Sequence record: MK327940.1
Direction: 5' to 3' (one strand)
Length of the DNA: 64,000 bases
Source of the DNA: Escherichia phage vB_EcoM_G29
The notes under the pieces were generated by a model. The model worked only from the letters and a program-made list of their open reading frames with translations. It made no database searches and was not told where the DNA came from. This document shows positions 16,679 to 25,580 of this stretch, in pieces. A program made the position numbers and the translations under genes. Numbering within the stretch: position 1 is the first letter of the stretch; every line of letters begins with the position of its first letter.

Positions 16679-16709
16679 TACTATAACACAACACGAGGGA
16701 CTTGTAAAC
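16679..16709 (-). promoter_or_regulatory. T4-type early promoter (GTTTAC -35, TATAGT -10)
   Basis: Minus strand GTTTAC-18 nt-TATAGT; part of a 53-bp unit repeated at 32581-32633. Confidence 0.6.
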
Positions 16710-18766
16710 TACATCTTGAACTTTTTAGACATTCCGTTGATGTTAACCAAAGAAGCTAAGATTTGAGAAACTTCGTTTTCCTCTTCTTTTGATTCTTCTA
16801 CAAGGAATTGATTAAATCCAGCCATTGGACGAACTTCACCAGTTTCCATTAGATGGTCGCCATCATATACTGATTCTTCTAATTGTTCAGAAGGAGGAAC
16901 GATTGTACCTTCGATTAGATACTTGTTATAAGCAGTTTCTTTCATAAAGTAAGTACTTACTTTATTAATCTTCAGTAAAATTCCACGTGGTAGAATAACT
17001 TCAGCTTCTGACGGAAATCCTGATAAATGACCCGGAACGATAACTTTGATTCGCTCAGCTCCTTTAATTACCATACCCACGCTAGTTTCAGCATCTTCAT
17101 TAGCATATGTAGAATGACTACCCATATGCATCAAATCTTCTGCATCAACGGAACCTTCTCCTTCACCAGAAAATACTGCGCCGGAATCATCTAGAGCCAT
17201 ATAGTTTTTACCATGCTCACCGAAGATATTTGGTTTAAGCGATGTGGATACGAAGTTCTTGAAATAGAACATTTTATTTTCAATGTTATGACGCAAAGTT
17301 TTAAAGGTAACTTCTTGTCCACGGTAAAGTGTAGTTCCTGGAGGAAGAACTGAACCTTTAGCGAATGCAGAATCAAGCGTCTCAATATGTTTAATAGCTC
17401 GTTCCATATATTCTTCACGGGTAGAATCTGGTTTACCCAAAAGGAACGAGTTCATTTCAACATATGAATCTGCACAATAATCTTCAATTACATCAGATTC
17501 AGCTTGAGTTAATCCTTTTGGAGTTACTTCAGTGCTTGCGTATTCATATGCCTGAGCAGCAGATTCATTAATCAATTTATAAATGCCATTCATGACAAAT
17601 TGAATAATAGCTGTCTTTTCATCTGGCGTAGCTTTAGAACCTTTAACCAAATCATTGATAATTTTCTTAATAACATCAAAGCTATTAGAAATATTAATAT
17701 CAGCAAGATCGCTTAAAATTTTATCAGTCTTATAATCAAAGAATTCTTTATTCTTTAAATATTCTTGAGAACCTTGATATGTTATATCGCTCTGTAACTT
17801 GATAGATGGATCACGTAAACGTGCATGGGCTAATGCAATATGATTTCGGAAGCTTTCGAGTTCATAATCACTAGATTTAAAACGAGAAGCGCTTCTCATA
17901 CCGCCTATAGCTCCTTTGCTGAAGTTTGAACCAATTTGAATAACGCCAGAGTTCATTGGTCCTTCTGCTTTATACACCGGAACTTTAGATTCAAACTCTT
18001 GATATTTCTTAGCAGCGAAGCTATCACCCTGAAGTGAAGCATCAACAGTAGAATATTGAGCTTGTGCTGCTAATCGACGACTAATTTTAGTTTTCTGAAT
18101 AACAGCTTGGTCCGTGCGCTTATCATTTTCTAAAGCAATAGAAGCAGCAACAGCAACAGCTTTAGGAACAGCATTACCTGTTTTAACATCTACATAAACA
18201 TCACCAACCTTTGATTCAACTTTTGTGAATAACTCAGTTGAAATAGGAGGTACACCTGGAATGTCTTCTAAATTGGCATTTTTACGATAAACCATAATAT
18301 ATGCGTACTTTTTATCATAATCCCAGATTTCCTTTAAAAGAACATATCGACCTGCTCCTTTAGTACGTACTAAACGGTCAGCAATAACTTGCATTTGACG
18401 AGCAGCGCCATTTGTTTTACTCTTTAGTACGCGGAATAAGCATGCATCAATTTTATACTGTTTCATTGTTTGAAGAGCAGTATCAAAAACAGCGTTAATG
18501 ACGCCAATTGGATTTCCACCCAAGTTTCTAAGTTTAACCAGTGATAATTTCTCGTTGACACCTATCATTACGATATGCATCATTTTATCGCCCGGCTTAA
18601 CGTTTTTATTTGTATCACCTCCAGAGGTGTATGTACAAAATCTAAATCCAGGAAGCACGCTTTCTTCGCCGGCTTGAATAGCAAAAATTTGAGGTATTTT
18701 ATGCTTAGGATTTAAGTTAACAACCGGCGCCGAAGCGCCGTCAAATAATTCTGTAATAAGTTCCAT
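16709..18766 (-). CDS. Alt-like ADP-ribosyltransferase, second full-length paralog
   Basis: 685-aa ORF; N-terminus MELITELFD and ART motifs (YRGQ, VSTSL, EAEVILPRG) parallel to the adjacent alt; about 50-65% identity by eye. Confidence 0.8.
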   Translation of the reverse strand: MELITELFDGASAPVVNLNPKHKIPQIFAIQAGEESVLPGFRFCTYTSGGDTNKNVKPGDKMMHIVMIGVNEKLSLVKLRNLGGNPIGVINAVFDTALQTMKQYKIDACLFRVLKSKTNGAARQMQVIADRLVRTKGAGRYVLLKEIWDYDKKYAYIMVYRKNANLEDIPGVPPISTELFTKVESKVGDVYVDVKTGNAVPKAVAVAASIALENDKRTDQAVIQKTKISRRLAAQAQYSTVDASLQGDSFAAKKYQEFESKVPVYKAEGPMNSGVIQIGSNFSKGAIGGMRSASRFKSSDYELESFRNHIALAHARLRDPSIKLQSDITYQGSQEYLKNKEFFDYKTDKILSDLADINISNSFDVIKKIINDLVKGSKATPDEKTAIIQFVMNGIYKLINESAAQAYEYASTEVTPKGLTQAESDVIEDYCADSYVEMNSFLLGKPDSTREEYMERAIKHIETLDSAFAKGSVLPPGTTLYRGQEVTFKTLRHNIENKMFYFKNFVSTSLKPNIFGEHGKNYMALDDSGAVFSGEGEGSVDAEDLMHMGSHSTYANEDAETSVGMVIKGAERIKVIVPGHLSGFPSEAEVILPRGILLKINKVSTYFMKETAYNKYLIEGTIVPPSEQLEESVYDGDHLMETGEVRPMAGFNQFLVEESKEEENEVSQILASLVNINGMSKKFKM

Positions 18767-18769
18767 GAT

Positions 18770-20821
18770 TTATCCTTGAACGAACTTGTAAGGCATGTTT
18801 GTAATATCTATGCAAGACGCAATAATTCCAAGAGATGATTCTACTTTCTGTTTAACATTTGATGAAACAAATGATGCAAAGTCAACTCTATCTTCTATAT
18901 CACCTGTCATTGTAACTACTTCGCCGGTTTCCATTAAACGGTCACCGTCATAAATTACTGATTCGGTGAGTTCTTCGGTGGTCATAACTTCAGCTTGAAT
19001 AAGCTTGTTGTTAGTTTTGACTGTTCCATCATTGTAAGATGCATCAGTTATTTTATTAACTTTGACCATTAATCCACGTGGCAAAATGACTTCCATTTCA
19101 TTTGAAGGCGCTAAACTTCCACCGGGTAAAACAACATTGACTTTATCAGCCCCAGTAATAACCCATCCAATTCCGACTAAATTATCGCTAGAATTAACAA
19201 GCCCTTCATCATTTTTATCGATAGAAATGTTTAGACGCTTTTCATCTGGTAAAACACCAACAGCTGAATCAGTCATCCAAGTACCAAAAATGTTTGGATA
19301 TAATGATGTTGATACAAAATTTCTAAAATAAAAAACTCGATTTTTTACCATTGCTTCGTATATTGAAGGTAACATTCGTTGTGAACGATACAAAGTAATA
19401 CCTTTTGGTAATCGTTCACCATTTTTAAAGGCTGAATCTAAATTATCAATAGCTTTTTCTATGTCAGATGCTGTCAAAATACTTGTACGCTCATCTGGAT
19501 TATATAATCCCAAAAGAGCATTATTTATGTCTACATATCCTGAACCTACGTATTCACGAATTCCGCGTTTTTGTGCTGGTGTGTATTTAGATGAATCTTT
19601 ATTTTCGACTATAGGATGTAATGACCATCCAGCTGTAAGAGCATATCCACGTAATTCTCTTCGAATAATCTTTGTTTTTATTGCATTCCAAGAATTTTGT
19701 ACTAACTCATTTGCAGCATCTTGGTTTAAATGCGAATGTTTGTTAATATTTCTTTCAAACCAAGCACCTTTATATTTTTCTAAAGTATTATCGACGATAG
19801 AAGCAATAGTTTCTAAAGTTTTTATTGAAGTAATAGATTCTTTTCGTAATTTTTCTAAAGCTTTATTTTTTATTTCTGCATTAATAATGGATTCTTTATC
19901 TTCAGGAATTATAGAAGCTTCTCTGAATGCCATCCCAGCTGTAACACTGCTAAGAGCATTCTCTAGTGCAAATCCTGAAGTAGAAATTACCGTTAATTCA
20001 TTAGAATCAGAAATTAAAGGCGCATCAGCGGGTTTATTTAATTCTGCTGCTGAAGCCTCAAATTTTTGAAACATCGGTGTTTCAAATCTAGAAGATTCCA
20101 ATGACTGACTTTGTGCAATTGCTCTACGGGAAATTTTAACTTTAACGATTACAGCTTGGTCAGAACGTTTATCATTTTCTTGTGCAATAGATGCTGCAAT
20201 TGCCTCATTTTTGGTTACTTGAGCTCCGGTATCTTTATTGATATAAACATCACCGACCTTCGATTCAACTTTAGTAAAGAGCTCGGTACTAATTTCCGGA
20301 ACTCCTGGAATGTCTTCTAGTGATACATTTTTGCGATGTATAAGAATATATGCATACTTTTTATCATAATCCCAGAGTTCCTTAAGAAGGACGTATCTGC
20401 CACCTGAACGACTACGGATAAGTCTATCAGCAATAACTTGAATTTGTCGAGCTTGATCAGCGGTTTTAGACTTAAGAATACGAAGCATACAAGCATCAAT
20501 TTTATACTGACGCATTGTTTGCATTGCAACAGTAAAAACTGAATTGATATAATTAATTGGGCTTGGACCAAGACCTTTTAATTTAGCAATTGAACCTTTA
20601 GCGGTTAATGTAAAAGGAACAATATGCATCATTTTATCGCCCATTTTTAAATCGCGATTAGTATCACCTCCAGATGTATAGGTACATAAACGAAAGCCTG
20701 GTTGTTCAATTGCATCATCAACATGAACTGAAAAAATTTGCGGTATTTTCTTCTTTGGATTTAAGTTTGTAATCGGAAGAGTAGTATCTTCGTCAAATAA
20801 TTCTGTAATAAGTTCCATCAT
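18770..20821 (-). CDS. alt: Alt ADP-ribosyltransferase (packaged internal head protein)
   Basis: 683-aa ORF with R-S-E ART motifs (LYRSQ, VSTSL, EMEVILPRG); late promoter immediately upstream. Confidence 0.85.
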   Translation of the reverse strand: MMELITELFDEDTTLPITNLNPKKKIPQIFSVHVDDAIEQPGFRLCTYTSGGDTNRDLKMGDKMMHIVPFTLTAKGSIAKLKGLGPSPINYINSVFTVAMQTMRQYKIDACMLRILKSKTADQARQIQVIADRLIRSRSGGRYVLLKELWDYDKKYAYILIHRKNVSLEDIPGVPEISTELFTKVESKVGDVYINKDTGAQVTKNEAIAASIAQENDKRSDQAVIVKVKISRRAIAQSQSLESSRFETPMFQKFEASAAELNKPADAPLISDSNELTVISTSGFALENALSSVTAGMAFREASIIPEDKESIINAEIKNKALEKLRKESITSIKTLETIASIVDNTLEKYKGAWFERNINKHSHLNQDAANELVQNSWNAIKTKIIRRELRGYALTAGWSLHPIVENKDSSKYTPAQKRGIREYVGSGYVDINNALLGLYNPDERTSILTASDIEKAIDNLDSAFKNGERLPKGITLYRSQRMLPSIYEAMVKNRVFYFRNFVSTSLYPNIFGTWMTDSAVGVLPDEKRLNISIDKNDEGLVNSSDNLVGIGWVITGADKVNVVLPGGSLAPSNEMEVILPRGLMVKVNKITDASYNDGTVKTNNKLIQAEVMTTEELTESVIYDGDRLMETGEVVTMTGDIEDRVDFASFVSSNVKQKVESSLGIIASCIDITNMPYKFVQG

Positions 20822-20850: not shown

Positions 20851-20870
20851 AATTAAAGGCCCGAAGGCCT

Positions 20871-21059
20871 TTAGTAATCTAGTGGTAAGAGAGTACGATA
20901 TATTTCAAACTTTGGTCCTTTTTCATAGGCATCAAATGTTTCTGTAAATTTATTATAAGCGTATGCATCTACAAATTCGAGAATGACTTGTGATACAGAA
21001 GTAGAAACATCTCCACCTTCTTTTTGAGCAATGACAATTGTTTCTAAGTAAGCTTTCAT
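20871..21059 (-). CDS. Hypothetical protein (position of T4 alt.1)
   Basis: 62-aa ORF, ATGA-overlapped with the gene 30 stop. Confidence 0.55.
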   Translation of the reverse strand: MKAYLETIVIAQKEGGDVSTSVSQVILEFVDAYAYNKFTETFDAYEKGPKFEIYRTLLPLDY

Positions 21060-22519
21060 AAACCAGTTACCTCATGAAAATCACCAAATACATCCTCGAA
21101 TGTATTAGCTTTAGTTTTATCTTCACGTAAACGAATCGCAATCGGAAGAAATAATTTAACGTAATCAGTGCGGCCATCAGATTTTAACCAACCGTTGCAT
21201 TCGCACTCTAGAATTTTTCCAATATAATAATTTTGGTTTTCCATAATGCGAGTACGGTCAAGTTCATGCGATTTTACACCGGCTTTATCTTTTAAGCCTG
21301 AACCAGCATTTACCTTAATTTTTCCACACTCTGATTCAAGAATAAATCCACCCGCTTTAGTAGGGTCTTTACGGTGAGGATAAATTCCTACAATTTTTAA
21401 ATCAACATCAATTACTTCTTTAAATTTATAGAGATTTTTTGAACGAGCATTTTCCCACAATCCATCGGTATTTTTGAGAATAATACCTTCAAGACCTTGG
21501 TCAATATACTTTTTATAAATTACCTTAGCTTCATCTAGGTTATTTACTACCTGGTTTTCAATTAAAATTACTTTATCATAACCTGATGTCATTTGTTCTA
21601 GTTTAGAAAAACGTACATCATATTTCAAACGAAATGCAGGAAGACCGTATATTTCTACCAACGGGACATAATCCCAGACCTGAAACTTCATGCATTGAGC
21701 TTCTTTTTCAGAAATGGTTCCCTTTAAAGATTTATTGGCGATGCCATTAGATGCAGTACGTGATTCAGCTACTTCGGCGAATTCTTTAGCTTTACTAATT
21801 TCAGGATAAGCATCAAAAAGAAAATCTAGGCCTTCTGGCTCCTTTTCAACTTGCTCATGGTATACCAATTCGCCATCAATTAACACACCTTCTGGATGAA
21901 TCTGGCGAGCTTCTGTAGTCATTTTGATTAACTCTTCCTTAAGAAGATCTAATCCTAGATATTCATTACCAGCTCGTGATAAAAGACGAACATCATCTAA
22001 TTCATCACCTCTGACTTCAGCAAAACACCGAGCTCCATCAGCTTTTAACTGGGCAAAGGCTGGAAATTTGATATTCTTATTAATGCCTTTTTCATCATAA
22101 GAACTTGCAAGCATTTGAGGTTGTTCAGGAATTAAACCTGGCCAAACTTTGTTTGCAATAGATACTGAAGCACCGCATTCAAGGTCTCGCATCATCACCC
22201 GACGCAAAACTTCAACATCATCTTTTTTACCGTCAGTAATATATCCAGTTAATTCCTCAATTGCCGCATTTCCAGTCAATTTCCGAGTAGCTAACGTGAA
22301 TTCAATGAAGTCAAGCATATCGGTAAGAGTCAACATTCCAAAACTCTGGGTAGCAATACCCGGTTTAGGCCATTTCTTGATATAATACTGTAACCCACGA
22401 GAATAAGTCAGACGATATACTCGTTTAAGCAATTCATTATCTTTATTCTTTTCAAGAATTGCTTGCTTCTGCTTAGTTGAACCAATAGATGCTATTTCGT
22501 TCAGAATTTTAAGAATCAT
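21056..22519 (-). CDS. 30: ATP-dependent DNA ligase gp30
   Basis: 487-aa ORF (T4 ligase length) with adenylation lysine motif KADGAR. Confidence 0.9.
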   Translation of the reverse strand: MILKILNEIASIGSTKQKQAILEKNKDNELLKRVYRLTYSRGLQYYIKKWPKPGIATQSFGMLTLTDMLDFIEFTLATRKLTGNAAIEELTGYITDGKKDDVEVLRRVMMRDLECGASVSIANKVWPGLIPEQPQMLASSYDEKGINKNIKFPAFAQLKADGARCFAEVRGDELDDVRLLSRAGNEYLGLDLLKEELIKMTTEARQIHPEGVLIDGELVYHEQVEKEPEGLDFLFDAYPEISKAKEFAEVAESRTASNGIANKSLKGTISEKEAQCMKFQVWDYVPLVEIYGLPAFRLKYDVRFSKLEQMTSGYDKVILIENQVVNNLDEAKVIYKKYIDQGLEGIILKNTDGLWENARSKNLYKFKEVIDVDLKIVGIYPHRKDPTKAGGFILESECGKIKVNAGSGLKDKAGVKSHELDRTRIMENQNYYIGKILECECNGWLKSDGRTDYVKLFLPIAIRLREDKTKANTFEDVFGDFHEVTGL

Positions 22520-22785
22520 TGTTCATCCTTTAGAGTTTGGTTTACAGCTCTATTATAAATCAATTCATCATTAAGCTCAGTCAAAGACCTGTGGTACGTG
22601 GTTCTAACTTTATTTCCTTGCATCCAGTGCTTGACGTAAATGAAACCTTGCTCTACACATTTTTTAAAAATTCGTTCGTCTTTTTGAGCTCGGAATTCTG
22701 GATTGCATCTAAAAAATTGATTTACGTGACCGTAATCACGTGTAGTATTACCTTCATTTTCATAAATAGTATGAACAACAAACAT
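22516..22785 (-). CDS. Hypothetical protein (30.1 position)
   Basis: 89-aa ORF, overlapping start/stop with neighbours. Confidence 0.6.
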   Translation of the reverse strand: MFVVHTIYENEGNTTRDYGHVNQFFRCNPEFRAQKDERIFKKCVEQGFIYVKHWMQGNKVRTTYHRSLTELNDELIYNRAVNQTLKDEQ

Positions 22786-23639
22786 TAGAATGCTCCTTGG
22801 AAAATATTATCACCACTACCACTAGTAAGTCTATTAAAATACCCTGCGTCGCCAGGCTTAATATAACTCCACGTATGGAATGGATGCATCTGATGTGAGT
22901 GTGTATAATATGGATGATATGGATTATAAGGATTAAATCCAGGAGTTCTCCAAGTAGTGTTCCAACGAAAAGAATCGTTTTTAATCATCTTCTCAATTAC
23001 ATCTTTTATAACTTTTTCACTATCAAAACTTTCTTTATTTTCCTTCGATGGAAAAAGCTTATTCTCTACATCATTCCATGTATAAACTCGCTGTGCAGTT
23101 TTTGGAATACTGTCACGTTCCCCTCGAGCCATCCAATAAACAGGAACATTTAATATTTCACTCGCGTGATCGCAGTGGTGAGCGAGATCGTCAATATAAC
23201 AAATTACGTTATATTTCTCTTTTGCCTTTTTGAACAACTCTTCTTTTGAAGAATCATGACCACACATCAATACTTCTGAGAAGGCACCAGGAAAAAGAGC
23301 ATTCAAATTAAATTGACGATTCAGCAGAGCGTCAATAGAATCACCCAATGCTGTAACAGCTACAAAATTATAATCTTCTTTTAATTTGTTAATTACACAC
23401 AGGGCATCTTTATATGGAGACAAGTAACGAATAAAATCTGAACGATTGTATTTTTCAATTAACTTGACGCCAAGTTCTTCATCACAATTAAAGAGTTTAC
23501 CAGGAGAAATAAATTTCTCATCTTGGATCATTTTTAAAATATGTTCTAACGGAAGATTATATTTCTGAGCAAAATAAGGAAGGCCTGATTGCCAGCTTAA
23601 ACATACTCCATCAATATCAGTTAAAATAGTAGGCTTCAT
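22785..23639 (-). CDS. HAD-superfamily phosphatase-like protein (30.2 position)
   Basis: 284-aa ORF; N-terminal ILTDIDGV (HAD motif I) and later YIDD (motif IV); unusual His/Tyr/Pro-rich C-terminal tail. Confidence 0.65.
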   Translation of the reverse strand: MKPTILTDIDGVCLSWQSGLPYFAQKYNLPLEHILKMIQDEKFISPGKLFNCDEELGVKLIEKYNRSDFIRYLSPYKDALCVINKLKEDYNFVAVTALGDSIDALLNRQFNLNALFPGAFSEVLMCGHDSSKEELFKKAKEKYNVICYIDDLAHHCDHASEILNVPVYWMARGERDSIPKTAQRVYTWNDVENKLFPSKENKESFDSEKVIKDVIEKMIKNDSFRWNTTWRTPGFNPYNPYHPYYTHSHQMHPFHTWSYIKPGDAGYFNRLTSGSGDNIFQGAF

Positions 23640-24100
23640 AGAGAGTCTCTTAATAGGTTTAACACATCAATAAATTCAGCTTCGGTTAATATTGTATCAT
23701 CTTTTGTTAGACCACTAGCCATGCTGTGCTTCAAAACTTTTCCTTTCGAGGCGTGTAATGCATCACGAAAGCCCTTGTTTTGGATCGCTGCTTCAAAATA
23801 TGCATTTGTGTATAATTCTTTCCATGCTGGGGAGTATCTTGAAAACGGAACTCCAAGCCAGAAGAGGGTCCCACGGTCCTGAGCTCTAGCATAAGACCTT
23901 CCAGCTTGTTGGGCGGCAAGCCCGGATAACCCAAATATACGACGTTGTTGTTCAGCATTTTTCACCTTGCATCCTTGGAGGAATCCTTCAAGACCTCCGA
24001 ATTGAATACCATCCATGACGAAAGGCCATTGGGCGAAATTACTTAATGCACACGATGGCCATCTAAAATTGCTTCTAATCTCTAACTCAGACATTTTCAA
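23636..24100 (-). CDS. NADAR / YbiA-like protein (30.3 position)
   Basis: 154-aa ORF; core LSNFAQWPFVMDGIQF resembles the YbiA/NADAR signature as recalled from memory. Confidence 0.55.
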   Translation of the reverse strand: MKMSELEIRSNFRWPSCALSNFAQWPFVMDGIQFGGLEGFLQGCKVKNAEQQRRIFGLSGLAAQQAGRSYARAQDRGTLFWLGVPFSRYSPAWKELYTNAYFEAAIQNKGFRDALHASKGKVLKHSMASGLTKDDTILTEAEFIDVLNLLRDSL

Positions 24101-24293
24101 TACTTATAATTTCAACATCAGCCCAATGACCATAGCAAGGAAGACGAAATTCAACTGGCCAGTTAGGGTCCTTTTCTAATATAATAGACTTAACTTGTGG
24201 TTCTTCATGTTCATCAGTATATGGATTTTTATCTGTTACTTTATATGTGACCTTAATGTACTGAATTCCAAAAATCTTATTAATTATATTCAT
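24087..24293 (-). CDS. Hypothetical protein (30.x)
   Basis: 68-aa ORF in the operon-like array downstream of ligase. Confidence 0.55.
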   Translation of the reverse strand: MNIINKIFGIQYIKVTYKVTDKNPYTDEHEEPQVKSIILEKDPNWPVEFRLPCYGHWADVEIISIENV

Positions 24294-24487
24294 ACTAATT
24301 CCTTTAATCCGTAGATAGGAGATAATTCATCGCCCATACGAAGGTCTTCATTTCCATCTACCCAAGAAACAATATAAGCCTCTTTTATTTGAATACCACT
24401 CCATTTAAACGGAGGTAGAACCTTAGAAATTAATCCAGGTATACCAACTCCCTTTAATTCAACAGTTTGACCTAAAAAGAATTTCAT
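24290..24487 (-). CDS. Hypothetical protein (30.x)
   Basis: 65-aa ORF, ATGA-coupled to neighbours. Confidence 0.55.
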   Translation of the reverse strand: MKFFLGQTVELKGVGIPGLISKVLPPFKWSGIQIKEAYIVSWVDGNEDLRMGDELSPIYGLKELV

Positions 24488-25247: not shown

Positions 25248-25580
25248 TTATTTTACTACTTTCCAATGCTGCATGTCAAGTTTACCAACTTTTTTCATCT
25301 TCTCAATTAAGCGTTCGGCACGTTGGCGAGCTGTAACATAATACCATTCACCTAATTCATTTTGTTCAATTTTTCCAACGATTACTGTATTCAATTCATA
25401 AATCCAACCAGTAAAGAAATTATGAACTTGAATTGTAAAGGTGAAATCTGTTCCCATACCTTCTGTTGTTTCTACTTCAATAATATCACCTTCAACTGCC
25501 ATTAAGAACCACATAGTTTCATCATATTTACCATTGAAGCATTTAGTTTTAACTGCAGCGTTCAGATTAATCGTTTTCAT
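25248..25580 (-). CDS. Hypothetical protein (30.8 position)
   Basis: 110-aa ORF; early promoter upstream at 25608-25637. Confidence 0.6.
   Translation of the reverse strand: MKTINLNAAVKTKCFNGKYDETMWFLMAVEGDIIEVETTEGMGTDFTFTIQVHNFFTGWIYELNTVIVGKIEQNELGEWYYVTARQRAERLIEKMKKVGKLDMQHWKVVK

Follow-up and report, generated by a model that had tools for sequence, protein, structure and literature searches.

The reversal of toxin-catalysed DNA ADP-ribosylation by a phage NADAR protein is already published, with both genetic and biochemical evidence (2024-2025), for AdfN, the product of gene 30.3 of phage T4. In T-even infection, AdfN-T4 is both necessary and sufficient against DarTG1. It is weakened by the substitutions E36A and K43A and by C-terminal truncation, and the purified protein alone strips ADP-ribose from DNA in vitro; the C-terminal helix, lost in the inactive RB69 allele, is required (PMC11825919). 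AdfN hydrolyses guanosine-ADPr and not thymidine-ADPr, and this guanine-ADPr glycohydrolase chemistry is common to NADARs and AdfN; the catalytic residue of the last strand is a His in the phage branch, an Asp in the DarT1-linked NADARs and a Glu in YbiA (PMC11125620). In uninfected cells, AdfN displays no antitoxin action, and its rescue of T5 and Bas25 is slight (PMC11825919, PMC11125620). Its full function is limited to T-even infections, and its authors propose that an additional T-even protein acts as a helper (PMC11825919).

For the product of the adjacent gene, 30.2, a search for 'gp30.2' returned no papers, and a broader search on T4 HAD proteins and phage deoxyribonucleotidases returned nothing relevant; a paper on a PUA-Cal-HAD defence system that senses m6-dAMP mentions no 30.2-type counter-factor. 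The window analysed here, a stretch of 64,000 nucleotides from Escherichia phage vB_EcoM_G29, adds another near-identical adfN allele. It also allows a firmer annotation of 30.2, as a predicted HAD phosphatase of NT5C-like type that ends in a disordered tail, and brings together its linkage to the DNA ligase gene instead of the NADAR gene and the published screen data on its dispensability.

Organisation of the locus

The phage belongs to the Tequatrovirus genus, and positions 22400-24400 of the window are 100% identical to Escherichia phage vB_EcoM_G4500. According to the T4 RefSeq and G4500 annotations, the gene order at the locus is that of T4, and the two ORFs under study are T4 genes 30.2 and 30.3. 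Both are genuine, conserved genes rather than fortuitous ORFs: they match phrog_420 and PF08010, respectively, and have homologues in about 1,510 and 1,440 phage records.

The genes of this string are all carried by the minus strand. Gene 30.4 (24087..24293; 68 aa) overlaps the start of gene 30.3 (adfN, 23636..24094) by 8 nt. It is followed by gene 30.2 (22785-23639), whose stop codon lies at 22785-22787, then by gene 30.1 (22516..22785), which encodes a DUF3045 protein of 89 aa (PF11243, E=2.9e-64, in agreement with the T4 annotation), and by gene 30 (21056..22519), which encodes the ATP-dependent DNA ligase according to the T4 and G4500 annotations and whose place downstream of 30.2 is conserved. 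An earlier note on this DNA had placed the 30.2/30.3 pair immediately upstream of the ligase gene; gene 30.1 actually lies between them. The same note had rightly noticed two ADP-ribosyltransferase genes nearby, which are two tandem Alt paralogs (16709-18766 and 18770-20821) both matching PF03496. Their proximity corresponds to the conserved T4 gene order.

A terminator-like hairpin found by consensus scan downstream of alt.1 (20854..20873, minus strand), where the G4500 record also annotates a terminator, is the likely end of a transcription unit including 30.3, 30.2, 30.1 and 30. The best sigma-70-like promoter match, TTGACA-18-TAAAAT (25250..25279, minus strand), is located upstream of 30.7 and is a candidate for the start of this unit on the basis of its agreement with the consensus (11/12). 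In the same scan, the overall count of promoter-like sites was not above that of shuffled controls, this single 11/12 match alone being noteworthy. Genes 30.3 and 30.2 share a 4-nt ATGA stop/start overlap and are translationally coupled. Overlaps of 1-8 nt are also found at 30.4/30.3, 30.2/30.1 and 30.1/30. Therefore, tight packing is general throughout the string from 30.4 to 30 and the ATGA overlap is not special to 30.3/30.2; it reflects this packing and not a dedicated two-enzyme pathway.

The NADAR protein gp30.3

The second ORF had been described as a 154-aa frame overlapping 30.2. It does exist on the minus strand and overlaps 30.2 by 4 nt, but the T4 RefSeq and G4500 annotations both place its start at the ATG at 24094, giving a protein of 152 aa; the 154-aa reading begins at a TTG at 24100, two codons upstream. 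The protein matches the Pfam family PF08010 (Phage_30_3) with E=1.7e-69 and 232 bits for a cut-off of 36. It is identical to T4 AdfN at 149 of 152 positions (98%), has the same length, the same E36/K43 pair, the phage-type H123, the C-terminal helix and the same position between 30.4 and 30.2. The substitutions (V47A, Q114H and I125M, relative to T4) affect none of the known catalytic positions. From its sequence, the gp30.3 of the window can be considered for practical purposes as the T4 AdfN protein.

The affiliation to the wider NADAR superfamily is far less visible to sequence searches. The general NADAR model of Pfam did not match gp30.3 at E<=1, and the similarity to YbiA in the PDB was marginal (E=1.3 with the single sequence, E=0.055 with a profile). 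The link therefore rests on fold and motif. The AlphaFold2 model (pTM 0.81) retrieved with Foldseek, as its top three matches in the PDB, E. coli YbiA (2b3w, E=2.7e-4, TMq 0.59) and two solved NADARs, the DarG1-type antitoxin of Geobacter lovleyi (8bat, prob 0.92) and a Phytophthora protein (8bau, prob 0.91), whereas all the remaining matches had a prob <=0.05. The model shares the YbiA/NADAR fold with these three proteins, and the SNF...W...E-x-x-x-Q-x-x-K core motif is common to all of them; the core reported earlier for this ORF, LSNFAQWPFVMDGIQF, is indeed present. In an alignment of 10 gp30.3 sequences that extends down to 40% identity (A2), E36, K43 and H123 are invariant. H123, included in KVLKHSMA, lies in the strand 120-124 of the model, which is its last beta-strand, and the C-terminal helix (138-151) is intact in the full-length protein of 152 aa. 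The predicted fold and these motifs thus place gp30.3 among the NADAR proteins, in the phage gp30.3/AdfN branch. Unlike the DarT1-linked NADAR antitoxins, it is encoded by an orphan gene, without any linked DarT.

Because of its near-identity to the T4 protein and of its retained catalytic residues, the gp30.3 of the window is expected to display guanine-ADP-ribose DNA glycohydrolase activity and to protect against DarTG1. During infection, the host toxin DarT1 ADP-ribosylates guanine in the phage DNA, which blocks replication; T4 AdfN has been shown to cut the bond between ribose and guanine, releasing ADP-ribose and restoring the template, and the window protein would do likewise.

The predicted HAD phosphatase gp30.2

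Gene 30.2 encodes a protein of 284 aa that matches phrog_420 (E=2.5e-90). As noticed earlier, it carries the HAD motif I (ILTDIDGV, residues 5-12) and a DD motif (residues 150-151). The predicted structure displays a HAD (Rossmannoid) core and is confident over residues 1-195 (23055..23639), a region that harbours motifs I to IV and corresponds to an NT5C-like HAD core with an alpha-helical C1 cap. The cap, of about 70 residues (helices 16-86), is inserted between motifs I and II. Motif I (D8-I-D10-G-V) ends strand 1, motif II (T96, in VAVTA) ends the strand 91-96, motif III (K132) just precedes the helix 133-142 and motif IV (D150-D151) is found at the end of the strand 145-150. An alignment of 37 gp30.2 sequences (A1) shows no variation at D8, D10, K132, D150 and D151, and a conservation of at least 90% at T96; in a second alignment of 44 sequences at 24-37% identity (A3), D8, D10 and K132 are still invariant and D151 retains a conservation of at least 90%. 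A fold search against the PDB gave 97 matches with E<=0.001, the best 50 of the 97 being all HAD-fold proteins.

Direct profile scans of gp30.2 remained below threshold. No HAD family passed the Pfam cut-off (the best was HAD_PNKP, E=0.17, 12.5 bits for a cut-off of 27.6), and the NCBIfam scan gave nothing relevant. We therefore relied on a predicted structure, on its fold matches and on transitive homology. The missing HAD match is a failure of sensitivity, the branches to which both genes belong being too divergent for the Pfam models. The earlier note had named a Pfam profile search as a check and counted the lack of a NADAR or HAD match against its own assignments. This search gave no NADAR match and no HAD family above threshold though both fold calls were right, and the condition was thus misleading here. 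Structure prediction, also named as a check, did recover the NADAR fold for gp30.3 and the HAD fold for gp30.2. Altogether, its predicted fold and its four catalytic motifs identify gp30.2 as a HAD-superfamily hydrolase, probably a divergent C1-capped phosphatase.

The closest relatives of gp30.2, as judged from its model, are the 5'(3')-deoxyribonucleotidases (NT5C, PF06941), such as human cdN and mdN and the Staphylococcus epidermidis protein 3bwv. These enzymes share with gp30.2 the HAD core, the helical C1 cap, a DxDGV motif I and a DD motif IV, and they have the best target-normalised TM-scores among the matches listed in the fold search. With the A1 profile, the only PDB match below E=0.5 was the deoxyribonucleotidase 2jao (E=0.0088); of the ten matches obtained up to E=1, just three more had a HAD fold, all of them deoxyribonucleotidase chains (cdN, E 0.67-0.91); with the single sequence, a deoxyribonucleotidase was found at E=1.1. 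Taken alone, such sequence-only matches, like those of gp30.3 to YbiA, are suggestive and become convincing only when combined with the fold results. The window protein itself had no direct match to PF06941 in the Pfam scan. Among 43 remote homologues, retrieved from a representative library with the single gp30.2 sequence as query (an alignment profile would reach further), 18 match this family (best E=1.5e-9); matches to PF00702 and PF13419 also occur, and one homologue matches HAD_PNKP. No partner domain was recognised in the longer remote homologues (P0183, P0198, P0127, P0196 and others), and nothing informative was found near those carried by short metagenomic contigs (P0138 and P0200). 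The invariant W16, eight positions past the nucleophile, has as its counterpart in 2jao the Phe of NMDGVLADF, to which the mdN and cdN literature ascribes a base-stacking role. However, the identity of gp30.2 to NT5C enzymes is only 14-20%, and gp30.2 differs from them by residues invariant in its own family (R108, N111 and the F116-P117-x-A119-F120 block) and by an 89-residue linker and disordered tail that they lack. Given the closed helical cap and the affinity to NT5C, the substrate is most likely a small nucleotide, namely a (deoxy)nucleoside monophosphate.

This C-terminal extension (residues 196-284, 22788..23054) consists of a charged linker, where residues about 207-220 form a single amphipathic helix, and of an aromatic/His/Pro/Gly-rich tail (225-284). 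The odd composition of this tail, pointed out earlier, is genuine: it contains NPYNPYHPYYTHSHQMHPFHTW, and F/W/Y/H and P account for 32% and 10% of its residues versus 14% and 4% in the core. The pLDDT is below 50 for residues 225-229, 244-252 and 254-284, and the tail is only 77% identical to that of T4, with an insertion of 5 aa, versus 98.5% for the core. It is missing or different in many homologues, although short C-terminal motifs recur; in the window protein, the C-terminal sequence is GDNIFQGAF. The tail is thus predicted to be disordered and appears to evolve fast. Since about 40% of the clusters of gp30.2 homologues do not have any tail, conservation singles out the core as the functional unit of gp30.2.

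Linkage of gene 30.2 and its possible roles

The distribution of the two genes was analysed at two scales. At the genome level, 1,438 phage records encode a homologue of 30.3 and 1,510 a homologue of 30.2, with a similar host breakdown and nearly the same set of genomes. At the level of gene neighbourhood, examined for 77 related loci centred on 30.2 homologues, ligase is just downstream of 30.2 in 72 loci. By comparison, 30.3 is found within 6 kb in 37 of the 77, within 200 nt in 22 and abutting in 14, and 30.1 is present in 24. In Edwardsiella phage PEi20, 30.2 and 30.3 are about 56 kb apart. In a rearranged contig from a distant phage, the 30.2 homologue is still at most about 700 bp from ligase; no ligase was found nearby in the most distant viral loci (L076-L078 and L071). 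Adjacency of 30.2 and 30.3 is therefore lineage-specific, and 30.2 travels with the DNA ligase gene and not with the NADAR gene.

Functional data on both genes come from a transposon screen of T4 in a K-12 host, HIDEN-SEQ, described in a preprint, one table of which we attribute to DarTG1 from its place in the file and from the depletion of 30.3. Under DarTG1, insertions in 30.3 are eliminated (log2FC -7.25, adjusted p 0), whereas those in 30.2 are neutral (log2FC -0.12, p 0.61, adjusted p 1, 71 sites), as are those in alt (log2FC -0.01). Insertions in 30.4 are depleted (log2FC -1.79, adjusted p 0.014), probably through a polar effect on 30.3. Furthermore, 30.2 is non-essential in T4, insertions being recovered at 72 of 72 sites (HIDEN-SEQ preprint). 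Gene 30.2 is thus dispensable for DarTG1 resistance. The counter-defence against DNA ADP-ribosylating toxins that had been suggested for the pair holds for 30.3, which is 98% identical to AdfN; a two-gene module is not supported, given this neutrality and the fact that only 37 of 77 loci carry 30.3 at most 6 kb from 30.2.

Most probably, 30.2 and 30.3 are neighbouring, co-transcribed and functionally separable T4-type genes, the latter encoding AdfN and the former an NT5C-like HAD phosphohydrolase. The HAD fold of gp30.2 is shown by its predicted structure and fold matches, and we infer its chemistry, substrate and tail function. As the nucleophile, D8 would form an aspartyl-phosphate intermediate, with D10 serving as general acid/base; the phosphate would be bound by T96 and K132, and Mg2+ by D150/D151. 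During infection, the enzyme may act in trimming or cleaning up the dNMP pool, and its disordered aromatic tail would probably be a docking or localisation element.

Could the two genes nevertheless form one ADP-ribose counter-defence module, in which the HAD protein processes the product of the NADAR (ADP-ribose or ribose phosphate) or is the T-even helper of AdfN? The ATGA coupling, the near-identical genome-level distribution of both families across T4-like phages, the 22 loci with both genes within 200 nt and the behaviour of AdfN, which is no antitoxin in uninfected cells, barely rescues T5 and Bas25 and led to the proposal of an additional T-even protein, would all fit. However, overlaps of this kind link every pair of neighbours in the string, 30.3 lies farther than 6 kb away or is missing in about half of the 77 loci (and PEi20 carries the genes some 56 kb apart), purified AdfN acts alone on DNA in vitro and 30.2 insertions are neutral where 30.3 insertions are lost. 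We consider such a module very unlikely, and for DarTG1 it is already largely refuted. The T4 transposon data also led us to reject, as a main model, gp30.2 as the additional T-even protein; the proposal made by the AdfN authors still leaves room for a cooperation that would not be visible in the K-12/DarTG1 screen.

The linkage to ligase, retained even in the rearranged contig, together with weak matches to two families, HAD_PNKP (E=0.17) and the polynucleotide-kinase phrog_415 (E=0.0039), might instead suggest a PNK-like DNA 3'-phosphatase that heals ends or nicks for the adjacent ligase. A C1 cap is typical of HAD enzymes acting on small molecules, end-processing HADs such as T4 Pnkp being capless, and the gp30.2 model carries about 70 residues of helical cap over its active site. 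The phosphatase domain of the T4 polynucleotide kinase/3'-phosphatase PseT, whose substrates are nucleic-acid ends, has no cap, and only the gp30.2 core (about 125 residues) superposes on it. Likewise, matches to Pnkp span a core of 125-128 residues only, versus 165 residues for a deoxyribonucleotidase-like protein, and 18 remote relatives match NT5C versus one for HAD_PNKP. A polynucleotide kinase/phosphatase is already present among the phage gene products, and the adjacency to ligase, absent from the three most distant loci, could be conserved T4 backbone order. A role in end healing thus seems unlikely. It is very unlikely that gp30.2 is a catalytically dead HAD scaffold owing its real function, such as that of an adaptor, to the disordered tail. 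The unusual tail with its recurring C-terminal motifs and the tolerance of insertions at 72/72 sites, neutral under DarTG1, could be read in this way, but the catalytic residues do not vary even between deeply diverged homologues (for D8, D10 and K132, at identities as low as 24%) and about 40% of the clusters are tailless.

Besides the NT5C-like phosphohydrolase favoured here, a more speculative reading, which we regard as improbable, is a phosphatase tethered to the replisome or ligase, docked by the motifs at the end of its tail and removing a toxic or signalling nucleotide during infection. Its substrate might be a defence-triggering modified dNMP arising from host-DNA breakdown, or an ADP-ribose-derived phosphate ester left after the action of AdfN/AdfM. 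If true, gp30.2 would be a second, still unrecognised counter-defence, or a helper of AdfN against DarT1 variants beyond that screened. Gene 30.2 is among the more widespread T4-family genes, and its product already bears the label of HAD protein or 5' nucleotidase in some deposited records.

The ligase-proximal gene cluster

Escherichia phage vB_EcoM_G4500 (Tequatrovirus) matches the region 22400-24400 with 100% identity, and 494 phage records cover 80% or more of this region. Its minus-strand gene order is the same as in T4: alt, alt.1, 30 (DNA ligase), 30.1, 30.2, 30.3, 30.4 onward. Both ORFs described in an earlier note made from the sequence alone, and all the peptides quoted there, are found in the sequence. 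The 284-aa ORF is gene 30.2 (22785-23639, minus strand). The 154-aa ORF is gene 30.3 (minus strand), but its TTG start at 24100 has to be replaced by the ATG at 24094 used in the T4 RefSeq and G4500 records, giving 152 aa. The two genes overlap as described, with an ATGA in which 30.3 ends and 30.2 begins; overlaps of 1-8 nt also occur at 30.4/30.3, 30.2/30.1 and 30.1/30, genes 30.4 and 30.5 lying at 24087-24293 and 24290-24487 (minus strand). The pair is not, however, immediately upstream of the ligase gene, as gene 30.1 (DUF3045; 22516-22785, minus strand) intervenes. Genes 30.7 through alt.1 (20871-21059, minus strand, between the ligase gene and alt) probably form one transcription unit, bracketed by the best promoter match (25250-25279, a consensus match only) and a terminator-like hairpin (20854-20873).

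The two ADP-ribosyltransferase genes noticed nearby are tandem, full-length Alt-type paralogs (PF03496; 685 and 683 aa) located downstream of the ligase gene and alt.1, at 16709-18766 and 18770-20821 on the minus strand. T4 carries a single alt and the short alt.-1 and alt.-2, which are remnants of an old duplication, whereas this phage has two full-length genes and has therefore kept the duplication intact. The alt.1 product has a match at E=1.9e-29 to 'Phage blade protein' (PF24647), one of the recent Pfam families. Gene 30.1 is found at 24 of 77 related loci, and a single homologue cluster (P0014) joins the gp30.2 core to a DUF3045 (gp30.1) domain in a putative fusion, which may instead stem from an assembly error or a frameshift.

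Gene 30.3 is adfN

The product of gene 30.3, which is adfN, matches Pfam PF08010 (Phage_30_3, E=1.7e-69) and is identical to T4 gp30.3, the published AdfN, at 149 of 152 residues. T4 30.3, renamed adfN (anti-DarT factor NADAR), is necessary and sufficient for the resistance of T-even phages to the DNA-ADP-ribosylating defence DarTG1; AdfN is weakened by E36A, by K43A and by an RB69-type C-terminal truncation, and the purified protein strips ADP-ribose from DarT1-modified DNA (PMC11825919). In an independent study, T4 gp30.3 hydrolysed guanosine-ADPr whereas thymidine-ADPr was not a substrate, and a histidine in the last strand was defined as the signature of the phage branch of NADARs (PMC11125620). 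Furthermore, 30.3 insertions were eliminated under DarTG1 in a T4 transposon screen. The present phage retains E36, K43 and H123, none of which varies in an alignment reaching 40% identity, and the C-terminal helix is intact in the AF2 model. The counter-defence against DNA-ADP-ribosylating toxins suggested in the earlier note is thus correct for 30.3, and already published.

The proposed NADAR-like fold is borne out by the AF2 model (pTM 0.81), whose only above-noise PDB fold matches are YbiA 2b3w, Geobacter 8bat and Phytophthora 8bau, i.e. all three NADAR structures in the PDB. The profile check that had been put forward as a refuting test behaves otherwise: the general NADAR model gives no match to gp30.3 in a direct Pfam scan and the gp30.3 profile reaches YbiA with an E-value of just 0.055, which makes this check a false negative for NADAR.

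A 75-aa out-of-frame ORF within 30.3 (23731-23958, minus strand), annotated 30.3' in T4, is also open here. In many gp30.3 homologue clusters (P0104-P0122) the protein is cut short or joined to pieces of neighbouring gene families (PF06919, PF11097, PF06019), and the published RB69 allele carries a frameshift; in T-even phages, indels and recombination seem to arise readily at the adfN locus.

The conserved partner of gene 30.2

The grouping of 30.2 with 30.3 in a two-gene counter-defence module draws on their translational coupling, on the presence of both families in an almost identical set of about 1,450-1,500 phage genomes and on the suggestion by the AdfN authors that full AdfN activity needs an additional T-even factor. 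It is nevertheless not supported, as 30.2 is neutral under DarTG1 and the adjacency is not general. In HIDEN-SEQ, the T4 screen (table assigned to DarTG1 by file position and 30.3 depletion), 30.2 shows a log2FC of -0.12 (p 0.61, 71 sites) versus -7.25 for 30.3; the value for 30.1 is -0.01, and 30.2 is non-essential, with insertions at 72/72 sites. AdfN is, moreover, active in vitro by itself. At only 37 of 77 IMG/VR loci does 30.3 lie within 6 kb upstream of the 30.2 homologue (abutting it in 14, within 200 nt in 8, 0.5-1.3 kb off in 15), and the two genes are ~56 kb apart in Edwardsiella phage PEi20.

The ligase gene lies just downstream of the 30.2 homologue at 72 of these 77 loci. A distant T4-like contig of 11.3 kb (L080, Logan SRR28403164) encodes EndoVII, PhoH, ligase, two small ORFs, a 30.2-like HAD protein, two small ORFs and UvsY; despite this rearrangement of the backbone, the HAD gene remains within ~700 bp of the ligase gene. 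Therefore, given the screen neutrality, the synteny and the activity of AdfN alone, it is the ligase neighbourhood of the T4 backbone, rather than the NADAR gene, that is conserved as the partner of 30.2; this linkage reflects either function or merely conserved gene order. In the same screen, 30.4 displays a modest significant depletion (log2FC -1.79, adjusted p 0.014) and 30.5 a non-significant downward trend (-3.0). Both decreases are probably due to polarity on 30.3, although 30.4 and 30.5 may contribute to DarTG1 resistance in their own right.

Core and tail of gp30.2

Direct scans assign gp30.2 to phrog_420, which bears a function-less label (E=2.5e-90), and the HAD profiles invoked by the earlier note match only below threshold (HAD_PNKP, E=0.17), as does phrog_415 polynucleotide kinase (E=0.0039). 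The HAD fold itself is upheld by other evidence. In a 37-homologue alignment, D8, D10, K132, D150 and D151 are invariant and T96 almost invariant, which corresponds to the four HAD motifs. The AF2 model is confident over residues 1-195 (block-mean pLDDT 90-98 for 1-190, 80 for 191-200), with motif I on strand 1, a C1 cap formed by helices 16-86, then strands 91-96, 120-125 and 145-150, motifs II and IV lying at strand ends. HAD proteins account for 50/50 of the listed Foldseek matches to PDB structures, among which 5'(3')-deoxyribonucleotidases have the best target-normalised TM-scores (0.64-0.71). The family profile matches the PDB sequence of deoxyribonucleotidase 2jao (E=0.0088), invariant W16 pairing with the Phe of NMDGVLADF. 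An exhaustive phmmer search gathered 467 representative clusters, mostly of 190-220 aa; among 43 remote members (24-37% identity), 18 match Pfam NT5C, 11 HAD_2 and 10 Hydrolase. Some deposited records already label gene 30.2 as a HAD protein or 5' nucleotidase, and a literature search by the name gp30.2 retrieved no biochemistry. The protein is very probably a divergent HAD phosphatase; an NT5C-like nucleotidase is the best, if tentative, guess for its predicted activity, and the modelled C1 cap argues against a role as DNA-end phosphatase.

Beyond the core, residues 196-224 are charged, with one helix, and residues 225-284 are predicted to be disordered (32% F/W/Y/H, 10% Pro). Compared with T4, the tail is 77% identical and carries a 5-residue insertion, versus 98.5% identity for the core. 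About 60% of the homologue clusters carry tails of 40-150 aa made of mutually unrelated low-complexity sequence, entirely different between lineages, yet with a few short end motifs that recur: G-T-G-I-E-Y-L-N-R-Q-P-T, L-[RK]-A-Y-Y and D-Y-x-L-L-N-K-V (in fuller form GTGIEYLNRQPT, L[RK]AYY and DYxLLNKVxAND). As such divergent tails still finish in few recurring motifs, their sequences suggest a fast-evolving linker ending in a putative conserved docking peptide. In this phage, the disordered tail (22788-22967, minus strand) ends in DAGYFNRLT...GDNIFQGAF.
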